Shown here: positions 33,404 through 42,194 of the stretch, in pieces | Numbering within the stretch: the stretch's first letter is position 1 | Layout: the number at the start of each line of letters is the position of its first letter | Sequence record: NC_134263.1 | Length of the DNA: 64,000 nt | Strand: one strand, 5' to 3' | Source: Escherichia phage T5_ev219 | The notes under the pieces: model-generated | The model's input: the letters and a program-made list of their open reading frames with translations, nothing else | Database searches by the model: none | Told to the model about the DNA's origin: nothing | Program-made: the position numbers and the translations under genes

Positions 33404-33886
33404 ATGGCTGTAGATAGTAGAGAGAAAGGTAAACGTGGTGAATATCAGGTAAGAGATATTCTACGTGAGCGCACAGGTCTTGAGTGGGAACGTGTTCCTG
33501 GCTCTGGTGCTTTTGGCCAGAGCCATGGACTAAAGGGTGACATTTACCTTCCCCCACAAAGTGGACATATTAGTAAATACTGCTTCGAAGTTAAGTGGTA
33601 TAAAGATGATAATATATCAAGTAATTTATTTAATGTTGGTGAATCCACTCTAGAGAAATGGTGGCAGCAGTGCTCACGTGAAGGTGAGCAGATGAACTCC
33701 AAACCTGCATTAATATTCAAAAAAGACAGAGGACAGTGGTTAATAGCTTTGGATAGCTCAGACCCGATGGTTGACAACTTAATGAGTCGTACCCATATGG
33801 TGTTAAATAAGAAAGGCATGGAAATCGTAATCGGTTTATTTGAGCCGTGGCTACATAATGCATCTGTTGAGGACTTAATTAAATAA
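33404..33886 (+). CDS. PD-(D/E)xK nuclease, Holliday-junction-resolvase-like
   Basis: E...GSG...D.Y...EVK pattern reminiscent of Hjc/RecU-type resolvases. Confidence 0.4.
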   Translation: MAVDSREKGKRGEYQVRDILRERTGLEWERVPGSGAFGQSHGLKGDIYLPPQSGHISKYCFEVKWYKDDNISSNLFNVGESTLEKWWQQCSREGEQMNSKPALIFKKDRGQWLIALDSSDPMVDNLMSRTHMVLNKKGMEIVIGLFEPWLHNASVEDLIK

Positions 33887-34761
33887 TGAGTAAATCCTGG
33901 GGAAAATTTATTGAAGAAGAGGAAGCTGAAATGGCTTCCCGTCGTAACCTAATGATTGTTGATGGAACTAACTTAGGTTTTCGATTTAAGCATAACAACA
34001 GTAAAAAACCATTTGCCTCAAGTTATGTTTCAACTATTCAATCTCTGGCAAAATCCTACTCTGCAAGAACTACGATTGTTCTAGGTGATAAGGGGAAATC
34101 TGTATTTCGCCTAGAACATCTACCAGAGTATAAAGGCAATCGTGATGAAAAGTATGCACAACGTACAGAAGAAGAGAAAGCACTGGACGAACAGTTCTTT
34201 GAGTATTTGAAAGATGCTTTCGAGTTGTGTGAAACTACATTCCCAACTTTTACCATTCGTGGCGTAGAAGCAGATGATATGGCGGCTTATATTGTTAAAC
34301 TCATTGGGCATCTATATGATCATGTTTGGTTGATTTCTACCGATGGTGACTGGGATACGTTATTAACGGATAAAGTTTCTAGATTTTCTTTTACTACACG
34401 TCGTGAGTATCATCTTCGTGATATGTATGAACATCATAATGTTGATGATGTTGAGCAGTTTATCTCCCTGAAAGCAATTATGGGTGATCTAGGGGATAAT
34501 ATTCGTGGCGTTGAAGGTATTGGGGCAAAACGCGGATATAATATTATTCGTGAGTTTGGTAACGTACTAGATATTATTGATCAGCTTCCACTGCCTGGAA
34601 AACAGAAATATATACAGAATCTGAATGCATCGGAAGAACTGCTTTTCCGAAACTTGATTCTGGTTGACTTACCGACGTATTGTGTAGATGCTATTGCTGC
34701 CGCAGGGCAAGATGTATTAGATAAATTTACAAAAGATATTTTGGAGATTGCAGGACAATGA
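33886..34761 (+). CDS. D15: 5'-3' exonuclease / flap endonuclease (T5 D15-like)
   Basis: 291 aa; N-terminus MSKSWGKFIEEEEAEMASRRNLMIVDGTNLGFRF matches my recollection of T5 exonuclease; FEN fold motifs. Confidence 0.9.
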   Translation: MSKSWGKFIEEEEAEMASRRNLMIVDGTNLGFRFKHNNSKKPFASSYVSTIQSLAKSYSARTTIVLGDKGKSVFRLEHLPEYKGNRDEKYAQRTEEEKALDEQFFEYLKDAFELCETTFPTFTIRGVEADDMAAYIVKLIGHLYDHVWLISTDGDWDTLLTDKVSRFSFTTRREYHLRDMYEHHNVDDVEQFISLKAIMGDLGDNIRGVEGIGAKRGYNIIREFGNVLDIIDQLPLPGKQKYIQNLNASEELLFRNLILVDLPTYCVDAIAAAGQDVLDKFTKDILEIAGQ

Positions 34762-35204
34762 TTAAAATTAAATTAACTCACCCAGATTGTATGCCTAAGA
34801 TTGGTTCCGAAGATGCCGCAGGTATGGATCTGCGAGCATTCTTTGGTACGAACCCTGCCGCAGATTTACGTGCTATTGCACCGGGCAAATCCTTAATGAT
34901 TGACACCGGTGTCGCGGTGGAAATTCCGCGAGGTTGGTTCGGTTTGGTAGTTCCGCGTAGTTCTTTAGGAAAGCGCCATTTGATGATTGCAAACACCGCA
35001 GGTGTGATCGACTCAGATTATCGTGGGACTATTAAGATGAACCTGTTTAACTACGGTTCTGAAATTCAAACATTAGAAAATTTCGAGAGACTTTGTCAGC
35101 TAGTGGTACTACCACACTATTCAACTCGTAATTTTGAAATAGTTGACGAACTAGAGGAGACTATTCGTGGAGAAGGTGGATTTGGAAGCTCAGGAAGCAA
35201 GTAA
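34758..35204 (+). CDS. dut: dUTP diphosphatase
   Basis: dUTPase motifs AGMDLRA, PRSS, GVIDSDYRG, RGEGGFGSSG. Confidence 0.9.
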   Translation: MIKIKLTHPDCMPKIGSEDAAGMDLRAFFGTNPAADLRAIAPGKSLMIDTGVAVEIPRGWFGLVVPRSSLGKRHLMIANTAGVIDSDYRGTIKMNLFNYGSEIQTLENFERLCQLVVLPHYSTRNFEIVDELEETIRGEGGFGSSGSK

Positions 35205-35226
35205 TCTACATATAAAATAAATAATA

Positions 35227-35255
35227 AACCCCAGTGGATTTTGTCCACTGGGGTT
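35227..35255. terminator. bidirectional rho-independent terminator between convergent early and late genes
   Basis: aaccccagtgg...ccactggggtt hairpin with A run upstream and T run downstream. Confidence 0.8.
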
Positions 35256-35260
35256 TTCTT

Positions 35261-36982
35261 TTATTGTGATACTAATTGTACCTTTAATTGCTCAAGCTCT
35301 TTCTCTAGATCTTCAATCCGTTTAATAAGATCTTGCACAACATGCATAGTGTCAAGAAGCATTGGAGTTGTATCTAATTCCTTTTGCTCCTGCTCTATTC
35401 CGTCATCATTATAAAATTTTCTAGTTTTTACATAAAGTGGTTCTATAGTCTCTACTTGCTGAGCAATAACCCCACGTCGAACACGAGATTTTTCATCGTT
35501 ATTATATACAAAGGATTGGAATTCTAATCCTTTTAATACCTCGATGGACTTAGTTGCGTCTATAGCCTTAATATCATGCTTTAAGCGAGAATCAGATACA
35601 GCATTTAATTGCAAAGTATAGGTTGCTGAAGCACCAGGCCACCAAGAATAAAAATAAATACTATTATTATTCGGCTGAATTTTTAAACGCACACCAAATT
35701 TATTATCATCATCTCCCGCTACCTGCCAACAAGAATCTGCAAATGAGCCTAAGTCATTATGAATTAATCCAAAATGTGCAGATGTCTTATACCCTGCGGA
35801 AGAAGACTGGGAACCGCTCAATATACTATTAAAGTTAAATGTACTACCTATATTGACCTCGTTCTGAGAAAGAGTACCTTGTACACAGCCAGTCTGAGAC
35901 CACGCCATGCCAGTAACTAATCTAGCTTTAAAACGATCCGTTACAAAATCCCCATTATCTACAAGCTGGGCGGAATTCGATTTACCGGTAGATTTATTGT
36001 CTATTAGTAGTTCAGTAGAGTAGGTGCCACCAATAGTAGCTTTAGCTCGTAGTGTACTTACAGCCTCACTACTAGTACCTACTTTATACTCAGATAGTAC
36101 ACTCCCGCCATAAACAGTAGTACCAGTATTAGGTTTGACAGCATCACCACTAATAACACTCCACGATGTATTCGCAGCAACGAACCCGCCTGATGCGCGG
36201 ATTACCCAGACGCCGACGAAGTTGCGCCCCATAATTTCATCAGCGCATCTTCCGTATACCGCACTACTTCCCGCAGCATTTAACGAAAGGCGTTGCGTAC
36301 CTAAGTTTGTGCCAGGCTGCGCACCCACAACGGCATCTCCTTGACTCGAATAGCTAAATGCGCCATTAGCGCCGTAAGCTATAATGCCACCTGCATCACC
36401 CGTGATGTTGGGAGCGCCTGAATCGAACACTAGACCATCAGCATTTGAGTTTGCCGTGCCACTTCCTGCACCGTCGCCACGCCCATAAAGAGCGGCTAAT
36501 GAACCGACTTGAACGCCGTTACGGTCTGGAACGCGGAATGTAGTTGATCCGTCACCCTTAGAATACTTGCCGCGCTGAAATTTATCAGCCAGCCATTTAG
36601 AATCATCTATAGCACCCACCATTTGAGCGTAAGCCCAAAGCTCCGGCCAGTCAGCCCTGTTAAGAAGCTGCCCATCAGAAACTACCTCATAAGGTTGAAT
36701 ATACGCACGGCTATCGCGAAGGTGGAAATCACCTACACCGTAATTCATAACACCATTCATAGTGGGACCGACTGTACCGGTGTTAATCTTATTCTCTACC
36801 CAACGTTTAGTTGCGGCATCATAGTCCCCAACAGGATCTCCCGCAAGAGGGGTGGACCCAATAGGACGCACATTTAACCATGCTGCTGCACGGTCTGCTA
36901 AGTCACTTAAATTATTATTCTTGTTAAGTGACTCATTTTTAAGTTTTGTAATATCCGTAGGAATTACTGTTTTAGTTACCAT
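35261..36982 (-). CDS. L-shaped tail fibre distal protein with C-terminal S74 intramolecular chaperone (LtfB-like)
   Basis: C-terminal SDSRLKHDI...coiled-coil chaperone signature; Gly-rich beta-rich body. Confidence 0.7.
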   Translation of the reverse strand: MVTKTVIPTDITKLKNESLNKNNNLSDLADRAAAWLNVRPIGSTPLAGDPVGDYDAATKRWVENKINTGTVGPTMNGVMNYGVGDFHLRDSRAYIQPYEVVSDGQLLNRADWPELWAYAQMVGAIDDSKWLADKFQRGKYSKGDGSTTFRVPDRNGVQVGSLAALYGRGDGAGSGTANSNADGLVFDSGAPNITGDAGGIIAYGANGAFSYSSQGDAVVGAQPGTNLGTQRLSLNAAGSSAVYGRCADEIMGRNFVGVWVIRASGGFVAANTSWSVISGDAVKPNTGTTVYGGSVLSEYKVGTSSEAVSTLRAKATIGGTYSTELLIDNKSTGKSNSAQLVDNGDFVTDRFKARLVTGMAWSQTGCVQGTLSQNEVNIGSTFNFNSILSGSQSSSAGYKTSAHFGLIHNDLGSFADSCWQVAGDDDNKFGVRLKIQPNNNSIYFYSWWPGASATYTLQLNAVSDSRLKHDIKAIDATKSIEVLKGLEFQSFVYNNDEKSRVRRGVIAQQVETIEPLYVKTRKFYNDDGIEQEQKELDTTPMLLDTMHVVQDLIKRIEDLEKELEQLKVQLVSQ

Positions 36983-36991
36983 TATAAAACC

Positions 36992-37270
36992 TTACGCCCA
37001 CTCTCTAAGAGGCTGTTCCAACTGAACTATAAAAGGCTCAAAGTATTCATAAGTAAAGGATTCACCAAGAATCCTTACATTAACATAGTATCCTTCATTA
37101 CGGGTGTATCTAGGTTCCTCATCGCCTGGTGCGGAGATTTCAGTATAAGTATAGCCAATCTCGTCCAGGATAAACATATCTCGTAACTCTTCATTTTCTT
37201 GCCAGTTTATTCCAACTAAGAAATTTTTATATTCGTTCTTGTCTTTAAATTTTAATATTATATCTTTCAT
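36992..37270 (-). CDS. hypothetical protein between tail-fibre genes
   Basis: ORF track; overlaps neighbours in operon. Confidence 0.45.
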   Translation of the reverse strand: MKDIILKFKDKNEYKNFLVGINWQENEELRDMFILDEIGYTYTEISAPGDEEPRYTRNEGYYVNVRILGESFTYEYFEPFIVQLEQPLREWA

Positions 37271-39693
37271 ACAGACTCCCTCATTTGACGATCCGTTAAT
37301 TCTTTATGCCAGATTCTAAAATTTCTGACATGCCCGAAAAGATGTTTCCCACCATCTGCACTTATGCCGCCGATACGAAGATTTTTAGAAAAACCAGCTT
37401 TCCATGTTGTTTTCACAGGCGTACCGAACACAGCGTTTGTTACGCATCTTAATTCTGAGCTTTTGTTGCAAACAAAACCCGTCACCATTTTCCCGCTTGT
37501 TTTTGTTGATACTGGCGTAAATGACTGACTGACCCCCAACTGAGAATAAGGCAGCGGCTCTACTGTATCGCTTGATGGAACCCTGAAAGCAACTAATAAC
37601 TGGTCTTCTGGTGCATTTGCTACATGTACTATCCTTGGTGCTGAGTTTGGGGCTATATCCCAATTTCTATTTACCTCAACAAGTAGACTTAACGGTATAG
37701 AGGATGGTTGATTGCAATCAGTTGGTATTAGGACCATGTCACTAGCTCTTGTGGCGGGCGTACTGCTTGTAATTATGAACGATGAAGCGCATGACCCTTT
37801 TTCAATTTGCGGAGTAGTCACCTCAACAAAACTAGAATCATCATAAGTGGCATCGGCTTTTTGCACAATCTGAATTCCACCGTTAATATATGCTGAGTTA
37901 TCTGTAACTTTATAAACAACCTCTATAGCAACCCATTCACCATCCTGAACAACATTTTTCACAGTGATGTTAGACGCATCCTGCCCGGACGTGAATGTAG
38001 CTAGCGTGTCGCTGTCAATAAAAAGAACAGCAACAGTAGCAGGTGTTTCTCCTTTGCTAAATCTAGCAACAAATCTTAGATTATGTCCTCTTGCCCTAAA
38101 CGATAGTGTAACTGCGTCATCTTTAACTACAGATATATTGTTTTGCGAGTTACCTGATATAATCCCATATGTACCAGTAGAGCCAGAGTAAACACCAGGG
38201 CCGAACGTTGCATATTTAAAACCACGATCATCGGTTTTTGTTTCACTTTTGCTTAGCCCTGAATTCGAGTTCCATAATTCTGGCGCGTTTGAATTCGCAA
38301 AATAGTTAGTTCTCTGACCTTCAATAAGCAGACCTTCTTTTTCAAAACGTGGCTCATTAATTTCTGCAATGGTAAGAGCGCCGGACTTATTGATATAGGT
38401 CGCAGTTGATGCACGAGTAAAGCTAACAATCTTGTCGCTAGGCAGTGTTATTTCCTCATCACCAACTGTTATTTTTTTATAGCCTGGTGCAAAGCCGGTG
38501 ATCATATCTAGAGAATCGTTAAACGGTATCCATACATCTGGAAGAGGTTGAATGTCGGGGGTAGAATTAGCAGCAGCTTCTGATCTATCAGCCTCAGTTT
38601 TTGAACGATCGGCTTCAGTTTTAGCAGTATTAGCACTATTAGCAGCAGCAGTAGCCTGTTCCCCCGCTTCTGCTGCAGAATTAGCAGCATTAGTTGCAGA
38701 AGTTGCAGCTTGGTTTTTTAAAGTTGTTGTCTCAGATACCGCGCTATTCTTAATACCTTGTGTATCTGTTTTTAGTTGCTCAACATCCGCTTTTAAAGCT
38801 GTTGTCTCTGTTACAGCACTATTTTTAATGGCCTGGGTATCAGATTTTAACTGTTCTACATCCGCTTTTAAAGCTGTTGTCTCTGTTACAGCACTATTTT
38901 TAATGGCTTGGGTATCAGATTTTAACTGTTCAACATCTGATTTAAGTACTTGAATAGCAGCTACAGATTGGCTGGCAGAAGTTGCAGATCCCGCAGCATT
39001 AGTTTCACTAGCCTTAGCTTTTGTTTCCGAGGTTTTTGCATTGGTTTCAGAGATTTTTGCCGCAGATGCCGATGCAGCAGCTTGCTCAGAGAATATTTCC
39101 GCCTCATTCCTAAAACCGTTAGAAGCAGCAGCTGATTGAGCTGCATTAGTCTCACTGACCTTTGCATTATCCTCACTAAGTTTTGCCGCTGCAGTCGAAG
39201 CAGCAGCATTAGTTTCACTAGCCTTTGCCTTATCCTCACTAGCTTTTGCATTAGTTTCGCTAGTTTTAGCTTTTGTTTCACTAGCTTTTGCATTAGTTTC
39301 GCTAGTTTTAGCTTTTGTTTCACTAGACTTAGCATTAGTTTCAGAGGTTTTTGCAGCTGCAGCTGATTCTGCAGATTTAGTAGCAGAAGTGGCAGACTGA
39401 GTAGCAGAGGTAGCAGATTGAGTAGCAGAAGCTTCAGAAGCTCCAGCAGAAATAGCAGCTTCCTGTTCAGAGTTCTTAGCATTAAGCTCTGAAGTCTTAG
39501 CTGCTATTTCAGAATCTTTTGCAGCCGCAGCAGATTTAGCAGCAGCCTCTATAGAAGATACTAACTCATTAGCAGTAATAGAGCTAATAGAATTTCCAAA
39601 AGTTACTGTGTATCTAGGAAATTTACTAGCAGTAGCTTTAGTATCATCAATATTTAATATTTGTTGTACAATAATCTTAGTAGTTATTGCCAT
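37267..39693 (-). CDS. L-shaped tail fibre proximal protein (LtfA-like) with Ala/Ser/Thr-rich repeat shaft
   Basis: 808 aa; tandem 25-aa and 14-aa repeats; synteny with collar and baseplate genes. Confidence 0.65.
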   Translation of the reverse strand: MAITTKIIVQQILNIDDTKATASKFPRYTVTFGNSISSITANELVSSIEAAAKSAAAAKDSEIAAKTSELNAKNSEQEAAISAGASEASATQSATSATQSATSATKSAESAAAAKTSETNAKSSETKAKTSETNAKASETKAKTSETNAKASEDKAKASETNAAASTAAAKLSEDNAKVSETNAAQSAAASNGFRNEAEIFSEQAAASASAAKISETNAKTSETKAKASETNAAGSATSASQSVAAIQVLKSDVEQLKSDTQAIKNSAVTETTALKADVEQLKSDTQAIKNSAVTETTALKADVEQLKTDTQGIKNSAVSETTTLKNQAATSATNAANSAAEAGEQATAAANSANTAKTEADRSKTEADRSEAAANSTPDIQPLPDVWIPFNDSLDMITGFAPGYKKITVGDEEITLPSDKIVSFTRASTATYINKSGALTIAEINEPRFEKEGLLIEGQRTNYFANSNAPELWNSNSGLSKSETKTDDRGFKYATFGPGVYSGSTGTYGIISGNSQNNISVVKDDAVTLSFRARGHNLRFVARFSKGETPATVAVLFIDSDTLATFTSGQDASNITVKNVVQDGEWVAIEVVYKVTDNSAYINGGIQIVQKADATYDDSSFVEVTTPQIEKGSCASSFIITSSTPATRASDMVLIPTDCNQPSSIPLSLLVEVNRNWDIAPNSAPRIVHVANAPEDQLLVAFRVPSSDTVEPLPYSQLGVSQSFTPVSTKTSGKMVTGFVCNKSSELRCVTNAVFGTPVKTTWKAGFSKNLRIGGISADGGKHLFGHVRNFRIWHKELTDRQMRESV
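38712..38940. repeat. tandem 75-bp repeat, about 3 copies, inside LtfA gene
   Basis: Copies starting near 38712, 38787, 38862; encode LKADVEQLKSDTQAIKNSAVTETTA units. Confidence 0.8.
39241..39324. repeat. tandem 42-bp repeat, 2 perfect copies with degenerate flanking copies, inside LtfA gene
   Basis: 39241-39282 identical to 39283-39324; encodes TSETNAKASETKAK units. Confidence 0.8.
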
Positions 39694-40121: not shown

Positions 40122-42194
40122 TTACCTTATATGGATATACCCACTATTTAGGTCTATCTTCATCTTGTAGTATGCCTCAGGGTTTCCTGATAACGCAGCG
40201 TTCCTATCATAAATGATGTTAACACCGATCTGAGATAAGAAAGCATTTCCTGCTACAATTTTATCTGCCGTCACCGTTCCGTTAACAATCATGTTTCCGT
40301 GGAGAACCATTGCAGGGTTAACCCAACCAGACCCATTCCATTGCCTTGTAAATGCTGATTGTGGGGCATTACTATTAAATTCAGTTAATACATCATATTT
40401 AACTGGAGGAGAACCGAAGTTACTTTGAAAGAAGGAATTAGCTTGTCCATCGTCCCAACCACCTAAACCTGCTATACCTACAGAGTACATCCCAGGACCA
40501 CGTTGTCCATCATGCCCTATAGTACCTTCAGTACCACTCCACTGAACCACATCTGACCAACTAGTACCCTCTAATAACCTATTAGTAACTGGATCAAGCG
40601 TACCCGTAGTCGCATAGATATTTTGTGTCATATCTGTACGGTTAGGTGGAGTTTTTGACCAACCAGGAGGTGGATAATCTTGTTCTAGTGGTTTAGCAGG
40701 TAGAGATGTTGCTAACTTATAAACAAATACTGTCTGTTTACCTTGTAAACCAGTCTCAATATCTACGTCACCATTTGGTGTCCCAATTACTACACCACTA
40801 GAGATGCGCAAGGTAGTACCATCATAACGTATCCATTGTGTAGCGTTACCAATGTCTAATTTAGCTTTGGCAGAGGTATTATCCATACCCATCCAAATAC
40901 CAGAGTTATTATCCCCCCAAGATTTACCTTGAGTGTAAATTGCTGGATTATCCTTACCAGATAAGTTAGTCATGATAAAGTTCGCAGCATTAATATCTCT
41001 AGTAATTACTTTACCGTCAACGTTAACAACACGGTTTATAGGGTCAAAAGAAATAGGTGCTTTTCCTTCTTCATCTAGCAGACCAATGTTAATAGCACCA
41101 GTAGCTGCGTCGATTAAGAATGTCTGTCTCCAGATTTCTCCATCTTTCATGCTGCCCTTAATAAAGGCATAATTAACATCAATACCCGTCTCATTGACAA
41201 AGCTGTTGTCTAGAGGAGTATCTTCATTAAGTATAAACGTTACAGGAGCTGATTCTGTTATATCTTGCTTATTTGGTCCCCAGGCAATTGATGATACCTT
41301 AAAAGTATGCTCAACTTTCCATGGGAATGATATAATCGTTGCAGCTCTAGCAGCTCCAACGTTTATCTTTTGAGCTTTAGCCCAGCCAGTCTTGGCATAT
41401 TCTTCAGAGTTTATATAAGTAACCAGAAATTCACGGACATTAGCACCAGCACCACGTTCCCAGTCCCATTCTACTCTAACATCATATCGTTCCTTACCAT
41501 CTGCAATTCGTGCAGCTTTAAAGGCAATGTTAGTAGGTGCAGTAGGAGGTACGAAATTATAAGCTACAGTGAAAACGCTAGGATACTCATAATAACCAGA
41601 TGAGTCAACTGTAACACCATCTGGCATCGTAACTTGACCAGATATTCTGATCTTATAGTCGCCAACAGGAACACCACCAAATTTGATAGTAGGTCCCAGC
41701 GCGCCTATATAATATTTAACCCATTCACTATCTTCTGATATAGCACTTTTTAATTCAATAGTGCAGTAACTAGCTTCACCAGCAGTCTCTACAACAACTA
41801 TTGGAGCACCAACACCAACGTCAACGGGTTCTGATTCAGATCTTGCTGCAGTAATTATTGGCTTTTCCTTTGTTCTAAAGTTAGTTTCATTAGAGAGGTT
41901 GATACCAATCTTAGCTTCTAGTAACTCTGAGTCAATAATTGAGTCATAGAAAGCCCCCTGAATCTCATAGGAGGTAGAGGGGGTTAAATTATTAATCATT
42001 ACGAAGAAAGTATCTATACCGGTGTAATCACGTCTATCTATACTTTCTCCTATTTTTAACCAAAAAGATCTACCAATAACATCATAATCAGTATAAATGG
42101 AGTGCTGGACATAAGCCAAAGTATATCCAGTCATTATACTATTTAAGACCATTTTGGCTGGTGCATTATTTGAAATCATTAAATGGATGCCCAC
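40122..42194 (-). CDS. baseplate tube/central fibre protein (pb4-like)
   Basis: 690 aa; synteny downstream of pb3-like gene. Confidence 0.55.
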   Translation of the reverse strand: MGIHLMISNNAPAKMVLNSIMTGYTLAYVQHSIYTDYDVIGRSFWLKIGESIDRRDYTGIDTFFVMINNLTPSTSYEIQGAFYDSIIDSELLEAKIGINLSNETNFRTKEKPIITAARSESEPVDVGVGAPIVVVETAGEASYCTIELKSAISEDSEWVKYYIGALGPTIKFGGVPVGDYKIRISGQVTMPDGVTVDSSGYYEYPSVFTVAYNFVPPTAPTNIAFKAARIADGKERYDVRVEWDWERGAGANVREFLVTYINSEEYAKTGWAKAQKINVGAARAATIISFPWKVEHTFKVSSIAWGPNKQDITESAPVTFILNEDTPLDNSFVNETGIDVNYAFIKGSMKDGEIWRQTFLIDAATGAINIGLLDEEGKAPISFDPINRVVNVDGKVITRDINAANFIMTNLSGKDNPAIYTQGKSWGDNNSGIWMGMDNTSAKAKLDIGNATQWIRYDGTTLRISSGVVIGTPNGDVDIETGLQGKQTVFVYKLATSLPAKPLEQDYPPPGWSKTPPNRTDMTQNIYATTGTLDPVTNRLLEGTSWSDVVQWSGTEGTIGHDGQRGPGMYSVGIAGLGGWDDGQANSFFQSNFGSPPVKYDVLTEFNSNAPQSAFTRQWNGSGWVNPAMVLHGNMIVNGTVTADKIVAGNAFLSQIGVNIIYDRNAALSGNPEAYYKMKIDLNSGYIHIR

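Follow-up and report, generated by a model that had tools for sequence, protein, structure and literature searches.

A three-gene, LtfC-anchored lateral tail fibre in Escherichia phage T5_ev219 with tandem DNA repeats in its proximal fibre gene

The lateral (L-shaped) tail-fibre operon of Escherichia phage T5_ev219, a T5-like phage (Tequintavirus) of the E. coli/Salmonella kind, is located on the minus strand of a 64,000-nucleotide stretch of DNA (NC_134263.1; hereafter the window). This locus is an LtfC-anchored T5-type lateral fibre in a three-gene form, encoding an LtfA-type proximal fibre protein, a conserved 92-residue protein (p92) and a distal fibre protein with a C-terminal intramolecular chaperone domain. 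The architecture is already known from phages Bas32, JLBYU40, mar004NP2 and many others, and the window differs from these relatives in the number of tandem repeats within ltfA and in which alleles it carries at three variable modules. Repeat number does vary, though modestly. Of greatest interest is a purely comparative lead, namely that the three-gene cassette seems to be shared across phage families.

The fibre locus and its neighbours

Assignment to the T5-type fibres is based on homology of the N-terminal anchor, the adjoining ltfC gene and the placement of the locus between pb4 and the genes encoding dut and a flap endonuclease. Residues 1-212 of LtfA align with residues 1-226 of DT57C LtfA (PDB 8hqz_d, E 6.4e-35), with 54% identity across residues 1-188 by blastp, and the protein belongs to phrog_1419, a tail protein family (E 7.6e-207). 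LtfC, the ring that holds the fibre N-termini at the tail tip, is encoded in the equal position in DT57C, JLBYU40, Bas32 and mar004NP2. A sequence-only reading of this DNA had described a multi-protein T5-type lateral fibre, which is borne out by LtfC (PF23926) and pb4 on one side and by dut and flap endonuclease (33886-35204) on the other, and the 808- and 573-residue open reading frames (ORFs) that it named are both present. Its division of the fibre into two genes does not hold, as a conserved 92-residue ORF lies between them and makes three; this gene had gone unmentioned although the interval described includes it.

Gene order is identical in JLBYU40, IrisVonRoten (Bas32) and mar004NP2, and the genes are tightly packed: the ltfC stop and ltfA start codons overlap in TAATG, the ltfA stop and p92 start codons overlap in ATGA, and a 9-nt spacer precedes the distal fibre gene. 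A strong bidirectional intrinsic terminator with the stem sequence AAACCCCAGTGGA...TCCACTGGGGTTT is situated between the distal fibre gene and the convergent dut. At the nucleotide level, the fibre genes (35261-39693) share 93% identity with Escherichia phage JLBYU40 across 94% of their length, and about 100 other Tequintavirus or related records match this region more patchily. The LtfA homologue of mar004NP2 is annotated as a structural protein with confirmation by mass spectrometry (MS), and both large fibre proteins of phage SIA3lw were detected in virions by MS of gel bands.

Coiled-coil shaft and tandem repeats of ltfA

In the DT57C structure, the N-terminus of LtfA forms a β-strand "lasso" in the LtfC ring and a three-helix coiled coil begins at T40 (PMC10713586). 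In the window, LtfA residues 40-250 follow a heptad register without break, of the form S-x-x-x-A-x-x, in which position 1 is Ser and position 5 is Ala, and similarity to the coiled coil of T7 gp17 (7boz_a, E 4e-4) extends over residues 269-372. From these similarities we infer that residues 40-378 form a three-helix coiled-coil shaft that continues beyond the part solved in DT57C and, if fully helical, would measure ~50 nm by standard helix rise. The sequence-only description of the 808-residue protein as a shaft fits this N-terminal coil region; the last ~430 residues instead comprise a conserved stem and two ConA/LamG-like β-sandwiches.

Two tandem arrays in ltfA are identified by Tandem Repeats Finder (TRF), one of period 75 with 3.0 copies (38716-38937, score 332) and one of period 42 with 2.5 copies and 95% matches (39236-39342). 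In codon register, the 75-bp units occupy 38860-38934, 38785-38859 and 38710-38784. Between the first two there are 2 changes in 75 bases, each of them synonymous, and the third differs at 19-21 of 75 bases (about 73% identical), such that the earlier description of near-perfect 75-bp repeats (38712-38940) is accurate for two units out of three. A search with the 75-mer allowing up to three mismatches returned 2 sites, compared to 0.00 expected from 100 shuffles. The 42-bp repeat that had been placed at 39241-39324 does consist of two exact copies. Both of these arrays were listed previously, with the omission of a threefold SATQSAT-type repeat, the 21-bp heptad array that encloses the 42-bp doublet, and a KTEADRS doublet. 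Judged from the aligned units, near-identity at synonymous sites shows recent duplication or gene conversion at the DNA level, beyond the periodicity of the protein.

Core-type residues are found at positions 1, 4, 8, 11, 15, 18/19 and 22 of the 25-residue unit encoded by the 75-bp repeat, a 7+7+11 pattern, and units of 7, 14 and 25 residues each correspond to whole coiled-coil periods. As all repeat units (9, 21, 42 or 75 bp) are also multiples of 3, gain or loss of a unit of 7, 14 or 25 residues would leave both the reading frame and the helical core intact, changing shaft length without switching the gene off. Each unit of 7, 14 or 25 residues would contribute about 1.0, 2.1 or 3.7 nm of shaft, respectively, if fully helical. 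A contingency or phase-variable locus was considered and rejected, since the units are all multiples of 3 and the observed indels are all in frame.

These repeats also have technical importance, in that a number of public assemblies are interrupted within them (window ~38906-38934 and the corresponding sites in OQ680481, OQ680480, OQ680478 and LC788708). The first 75-bp unit is where the records of phC17 and phC11 start and that of phA11 stops, and the AZ21 record opens inside its own SETNAK heptad array, which suggests either short-read assemblies broken by the repeats or heterogeneous lysates.

Comparison of copy number among relatives, proposed alongside the sequence-only reading as its check, reveals that the number is not invariant. 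Among 61 homologous LtfA proteins with a T5-type N-terminus, the 25-residue unit is present 0, 1, 2 and 3 times in 7, 19, 27 and 8 proteins, respectively, the heptad pattern K[TNA][ED]ADR[SA] occurs three times in 14, and the end of the shaft falls between residue 128 and residue 385, with the window in the longest class. When 20 full-length homologues are aligned, each indel in the shaft amounts to one adjacent repeat unit gained or lost, namely the 25-residue unit (3, 2 or 1 copies), AAKTSET, KTEADRS (2 or 3 copies), SATQSAT and the 3-residue SAA; an extra KTEADRS heptad is aligned in three homologues (P0010, P0011 and P0015), one of which (P0011) is also without one heptad at the SATQSAT array. 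Two contigs of JGI metagenome 3300045988, L008 and L009, are 99.6-99.7% identical over 10 kb and lie exactly one 75-bp unit apart, the indel being clean with identical flanks. Isolates JLBYU40, Bas32, mar004NP2 and L6jm carry two copies of this unit, and FFH_1 and ESCO40 carry three, with units that have diverged in sequence. The 42-bp doublet is identical in the window, L008, L009 and mar004NP2, and the corresponding region of JLBYU40 and Bas32 is of equal length with diverged sequence. In the DT571/2 mutant DT571/2-ABF, LtfA has one added copy of a 19-residue tandem motif (PMC4728585).

Copy number mostly follows two sequence groups. The suggestion that the repeats are hot spots for slippage or recombination is sustained insofar as copy number does vary, however the independent events are few and undatable, no rate can be derived from them, and the 42-bp doublet is constant.

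LamG-like end, p92 and distal protein

Homologues of the LtfA C-terminus (37 aligned sequences from four phage groups) are most invariant in the stem that follows the coil, which is 71-100% identical to that of the window across the cassette set. A β-sandwich jelly-roll fold was found in the model of the LtfA C-terminal region and matches carbohydrate-binding modules and lectins; no ligand-binding site was identified in the LtfA modules. The second module, the DNA of which is up to 88-89% identical to side-fibre genes of Escherichia coli prophages, is variable apart from its last ~30 residues and was modelled at moderate confidence. Among close relatives the two modules are swapped independently of each other, with conservation of the stem (residues 379-464) and of the last ~30 residues. 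From QPLPDVWIPFNDSLDM (residue ~383) onwards, LtfA is homologous to the last ~430 residues of side tail fibres in three other phage groups, namely the lambdoid prophages with phage 21, the T1-like phages (Bas06) and Seuratvirus (Bas22), each of which has its own N-terminal anchor. At the nucleotide level, the region 37270-38559 shares 76-89% identity with side-fibre genes of Escherichia coli prophages in 171 of 5426 complete genomes; this similarity points to a recent exchange of the LamG-end region between virulent and temperate phages.

Prophage copies of the LamG-end region occupy the J-lom-stf position (L098). Genes on E. coli chromosomes annotated as encoding a "phage tail length tape measure family protein" (PF06791) were also recovered, matching 82% of LtfA at 57% identity in one case (P0074) and the LtfA C-terminal region at 88% nucleotide identity in others (L098, H106 and H109). 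These tape-measure-annotated genes may be fusions, prophage fibre genes disrupted by insertion sequences, or misannotations.

The p92 protein belongs to phrog_1361. In 169 phage records, spanning T5-like, T1-like, Seuratvirus and lambdoid genomes, its gene is always found directly after a LamG-ended fibre gene, and a profile search of 1.84 billion representatives returned 69 clusters only. The p92 model has a small alpha/beta fold with a predicted local distance difference test score (pLDDT) of 79.7. Multi-stretch matches to the p92 profile (E 1e-12 to 1e-5) also occur in a few PKD-repeat proteins of 1300-1800 residues, outside the PKD domains (P0193, P0197, P0210, P0228 and P0233); with an hhalign probability of only 53%, these may mark a real distant repeat domain but are more probably inflated by repetitive sequence.

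The product of the gene that follows p92 opens with the motif M-(V/A/T)-T-x-T-x-(I/V)-P-x-D-I-x-x-L-K in 86 of 89 loci, the window included. This motif is the only part common to the third-gene products, which range from about 220 to 589 residues in length and are otherwise unrelated between phage groups; PF13884 was at or above cut-off in four of the five representative products scanned. When p92 identity was compared with identity of LtfA segments and of the distal N-terminus, the distal N-terminus agreed best (Spearman 0.87). Scanning viral contigs with an alignment of the motif gave seven confirmed loci, all of them already known; as confirmation was made against the first sequence, this is uninformative. 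Conservation of the motif suggests that it serves to dock the distal protein on the proximal, LamG-ended one, and p92 may be an assembly factor or a connector. We tentatively propose, at slightly under even confidence, that the locus is one case of a widespread undescribed "plug-and-socket" cassette consisting of a stem and ConA/LamG socket, p92 and swappable motif-bearing distal proteins; with the same reserve, its range would extend over T5-like, T1-like, Seuratvirus/Nonagvirus and lambdoid phages, with most of the distal proteins bearing an S74 domain. The collection of papers searched yielded no account of a LamG-ended Tequintavirus fibre, nor of studies relating repeat number to fibre length.

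In phage 21 (L004 5292-5585; L018), the 92-residue ORF is followed by a 97-residue predicted membrane protein and then by sitABCD transporter genes, and the fibre cassette appears to have been truncated by a moron insertion. In the Seuratvirus KurtStettler, the 510-residue product of bas22_0024 (L006 5289-6821) bears the candidate docking motif as well as an S74 domain (residues 208-259), with a Gly-rich/Cys-rich tail of ~250 residues beyond it, an unusual placement; the gene is annotated as a "putative lateral tail fiber chaperone".

The distal protein (phrog_6921, tail fibre) aligns over residues 14-566 with residues 526-1072 of DT57C LtfA (E 6.4e-129), and over residues 30-346 with residues 206-528 of DT57C LtfB. 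It is 98-100% identical to its counterparts in JLBYU40, Bas32, mar004NP2, L008 and L009 outside residues ~125-260, compared to 22-48% within them, and the closest allele of this hypervariable region is that of phages AZ21 and AZ23 (95%), followed by those of a myovirus (67%) and podoviruses (~57%). In Bas32, the homologous Gp24 has been modelled, in the 2025 BASEL paper (PMC11990801), as a T-shaped fibre attached to a long proximal one and comprising a Gp12-like receptor-binding domain 1 (RBD1), a T5-like RBD2 and an intramolecular chaperone, and this phage forms plaques on K-12 in which O16 antigen has been restored (PMC11990801, PMC8594841). As the variable insert corresponds to RBD1, the window phage probably recognises a glycan different from the O16 antigen of Bas32.

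The S74-type chaperone that the sequence-only reading had placed on the distal protein is upheld. The SDSRLKHDI signature is found at residues 463-471 of the 573-residue protein, the Peptidase_S74 domain (PF13884) matches residues 463-515 with an E value of 3.3e-12 and 46.9 bits against a cut-off of 22, Lys468 lies five residues past Ser463, and the region aligns with the chaperone domains of 6f45_A and DT57C LtfA. In T5 pb1 the chaperone is cut at Thr1263-Ser1264, the serine being activated by Lys1269, and only the cleaved protein competitively blocks infection (PMC4690869). By analogy, cleavage between V462 and S463 is predicted to produce fragments of 48.7 kDa (residues 1-462) and about 13 kDa.

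Table 1. Features of the lateral tail-fibre locus, with positions in the window.
Feature	Position	Strand	Basis
pb4, straight fibre	40122-42194	-	pb4 domains
LtfC collar protein, 140 aa	39693-40115	-	PF23926 LtfC, E 8.4e-15
LtfA-type proximal fibre protein, 808 aa, 84.7 kDa	37267-39693	-	ORF
LtfA aa 1-39, N-terminal anchor into LtfC collar	39577-39693	-	near-invariant in 20 homologues
LtfA aa 40-378, Ser/Ala-cored heptad region	38560-39576	-	heptad register, T7 gp17 match
21-bp x3, SATQSAT SATQSAT SATKSAE, aa 89-109	39367-39429	-	TRF period 21, 2.9 copies
21-bp heptad array enclosing 42-bp doublet	39199-39345	-	periodic DNA
Exact 2 x 42-bp tandem repeat, aa 124-151, SETKAKTSETNAKA x2	39241-39324	-	0/42 differences
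3 x 75-bp tandem array, aa 254-328	38710-38934	-	25-aa unit VEQLKSDTQAIKNSAVTETTALKAD, reads 7+7+11
KTEADRS x2 heptad doublet, aa 358-371	38581-38622	-	sequence
LtfA aa 379-464, conserved stem (PDIQPLPDVWIPFNDSLDM...EGQRTNY)	38302-38559	-	most invariant columns of 37 homologues
LtfA aa 465-635, first ConA/LamG-like beta-sandwich, variable module	37789-38301	-	
LtfA aa 664-808, second beta-sandwich, ends in conserved HLFGHVRNFRIWHKELTDRQ	37270-37704	-	AlphaFold2 (AF2) model residues 290-434
p92, 92-aa protein	36992-37270	-	ORF, conserved
Distal fibre protein, 573 aa, 61.7 kDa	35261-36982	-	ORF
Distal aa 1-15, MVTKTVIPTDITKLK, candidate docking motif	36938-36982	-	conserved N-terminus
Distal aa 125-260, hypervariable region, Gp12-like RBD1 of Bas32 Gp24	36203-36610	-	PMC11990801
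Distal aa 261-463, conserved body, T5-like RBD2 of Bas32 model, up to Ser463	35594-36202	-	
Peptidase_S74 intramolecular chaperone, aa 463-573, Ser463/Lys468	35264-35596	-	PF13884
Bidirectional intrinsic terminator	35226-35256	both	14-bp stem, 7 G-C pairs, T-runs on both strands

Fibre model, alternatives and known systems

What is directly observed comprises gene content, homologies, repeats, differences in copy number and the fold at the end of LtfA, and the explanation that we consider likely as a whole is a three-gene fibre with a repeat-adjusted coil, a docking motif and S74-mediated release. According to this model, the first ~39 residues of LtfA would anchor in the LtfC collar, to be followed by a Ser/Ala-cored trimeric alpha-helical coiled coil of ~340 residues and about 50 nm, and the protein would end in the conserved stem and the two ConA/LamG-like β-sandwich modules. 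Translationally coupled to LtfA, p92 would either assist in assembly of the LamG-ended protein or serve as a connector. The distal protein would dock on the end of LtfA by means of its N-terminal 15-residue motif, presenting the hypervariable Gp12-like receptor-binding region and the T5-like tip. Its S74 chaperone would aid folding and, once the trimer has folded, Ser463 and Lys468 would cut the chain at V462-S463 to unmask the tip. Slippage or unequal recombination between near-identical units may add or remove about 1.0, 2.1 or 3.7 nm of shaft, and with all of the DNA repeats lying in the coiled-coil shaft and having unit lengths of whole coiled-coil periods, such changes would spare both frame and helical register. 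Fibre length may have some adaptive value.

A number of points weigh against this model. The structure models are of monomers only, with the protein-protein contacts being deduced, and the stem has a pLDDT below 50 as a monomer. On LtfA of the window, PF13385 (Laminin_G_3) falls under the Pfam cut-off (23.5 compared to 27.6 bits, E 6.6e-5), although several LtfA homologues have this domain on record, and no informative structural relative of the p92 model was found. The co-variation of p92 with the distal N-terminus may be explained equally by linkage, given the 9 bp that separate the two genes, and is not counted as a sign of contact. Phage 21 has retained p92 although it has no third gene with the motif, from which it follows that p92 is not solely an adaptor for the distal protein and is tied at least partly to the proximal protein. 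With respect to the shaft, no copy-number change of the 42-bp doublet was seen in any relative examined, the tracking of two sequence groups by copy number implies few independent events, and the one-unit difference between the metagenome contigs L008 and L009 could reflect assembly collapse.

It is possible, if rather doubtful, that the repeats are neutral by-products of coil periodicity, with copy changes that are rare and a fibre length that is without consequence for infection. The small number of independent events among the 61 homologues, the association of copy number with two sequence groups, the equal heptad count of the 42-bp doublet region in all relatives and the dispensability of lateral fibres on rough hosts (PMC4728585, PMC8594841) are all consistent with neutrality, however the near-identity at synonymous sites reflects recent duplication or gene conversion of DNA, the coil indels are confined to repeat arrays, and the end of the shaft ranges from residue 128 to 385 in close homologues. 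Moreover, genomes that are 99.6% identical differ by one unit, and gain of a unit was selected in the laboratory in DT571/2-ABF. Copy-number differences between very close relatives might themselves be artefacts of short-read assembly, in which tandem units were collapsed or broken, as L008 and L009 are metagenome contigs and as the phC17, phC11 and phA11 records break at the first 75-bp unit and that of AZ21 in a heptad array. We regard this as improbable, given that the array is just 225 bp long with units that carry distinguishing bases, and that isolates from independent laboratories have two or three copies with diverged, unambiguous units.

For the outer part of the fibre, a branched or bifunctional arrangement is plausible while falling short of probable; here, the ConA/LamG modules of LtfA would bind a glycan and the distal protein would be a second, laterally attached adhesin, by a logic analogous to that of DT57C LtfA and LtfB and not as an end-on extension of LtfA. 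Independent swapping of the two modules among close relatives is usual for receptor-binding domains, the fold matches carbohydrate-binding modules and lectins, phage 21 has a LamG-ended fibre and p92 with no motif-bearing distal protein, and 88-89% nucleotide identity to prophage fibre genes indicates recent exchange. Such a role for the modules is countered by the lack of an identified ligand-binding site, the moderate model confidence for the second of them and the published Bas32 model, in which the distal protein is on the long proximal fibre; the modules may also vary as a socket that matches p92 or the distal protein. A branched fibre strictly of the DT57C LtfA/LtfB type is very unlikely and was rejected on three defining features, even though ltfC and dut flank two large fibre genes and homology to DT57C proteins is seen both at the N-terminus of LtfA and in the middle part of the distal protein. 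The 808-residue protein has neither an S74 domain nor a phiEco32 gp14-like region and matches only through residues 1-202 and coil segments, the N-terminus of the distal protein has a different motif in place of the gp15-like part of DT57C LtfB, and no p92 is encoded between ltfA and ltfB in DT57C.

As a three-gene fibre, the locus resembles that of Bas32 (bas32_0022, 0023 and 0024; PMC8594841, PMC11990801) in its order of LtfC, ~800-residue LtfA, 92-residue ORF and 574-residue S74 protein and in the anchor and coil of LtfA. Bas32 differs in having two copies of the 25-residue unit instead of three, one extra heptad and a diverged 42-bp region, and other alleles of both LamG-like modules (20-60% identity) and of RBD1 (22-48%), which makes a different host glycan specificity probable. 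JLBYU40 (OK272480) is the closest isolate, with a LtfA C-terminus about 97-100% identical and p92 99% identical; its LtfA of 790 residues has two units and one extra heptad, and its 589-residue distal protein has another RBD1 allele. DT57C (PMC4728585; PDB 8HQZ) shares the LtfC-anchored N-terminus, the coiled coil predicted here, the S74 chaperone and variable tandem repeats (a 19-residue motif), however its LtfA has its own tip and S74 domain along with a phiEco32 gp14-like docking region, its LtfB docks by a gp15-like N-terminus, and it has neither the LamG end nor p92. T5 pb1 (PMC4690869) has in common the attachment module, the genomic position and, at the C-terminus, an S74 chaperone that bears the Ser/Lys(+5) pair and is removed after folding in T5, but is a single polypeptide of 1396 residues, whereas the window fibre is divided among three gene products and has another tip.

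The cassettes of lambdoid prophages and phage 21, Bas06 and Bas22 are alike in having a LamG-ended fibre with a SExxAxx coil, a p92 homologue that is 35-65% identical, and a third gene whose product has the same N-terminal motif. In these lambdoid, T1-like and Seuratvirus genomes, the anchor is instead of the lambda Stf type (PF08400) or the T1 type, the coil is far shorter, and the third proteins are about 220-350 residues long with unrelated bodies, the third gene being absent from phage 21.

The range of O-antigen types that a T5-like phage gets through is set by its lateral fibres, whose modular layout therefore matters for host-range prediction and for the engineering of therapeutic phages. 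The only regions that distinguish the fibre of the window from those of its closest relatives in this respect are distal residues ~125-260 and the two LamG-like modules of LtfA. A shaft that is adjustable in whole coiled-coil units offers a natural handle to test fibre reach, and the N-terminal motif and p92 mark the likely junction for attachment of the distal tip, useful for tip swapping. If the plug-and-socket proposal is true, distal tips would be swappable between virulent and temperate phages by the motif alone, and the repeat-encoded shaft would be an independent, quickly adjustable length setting.

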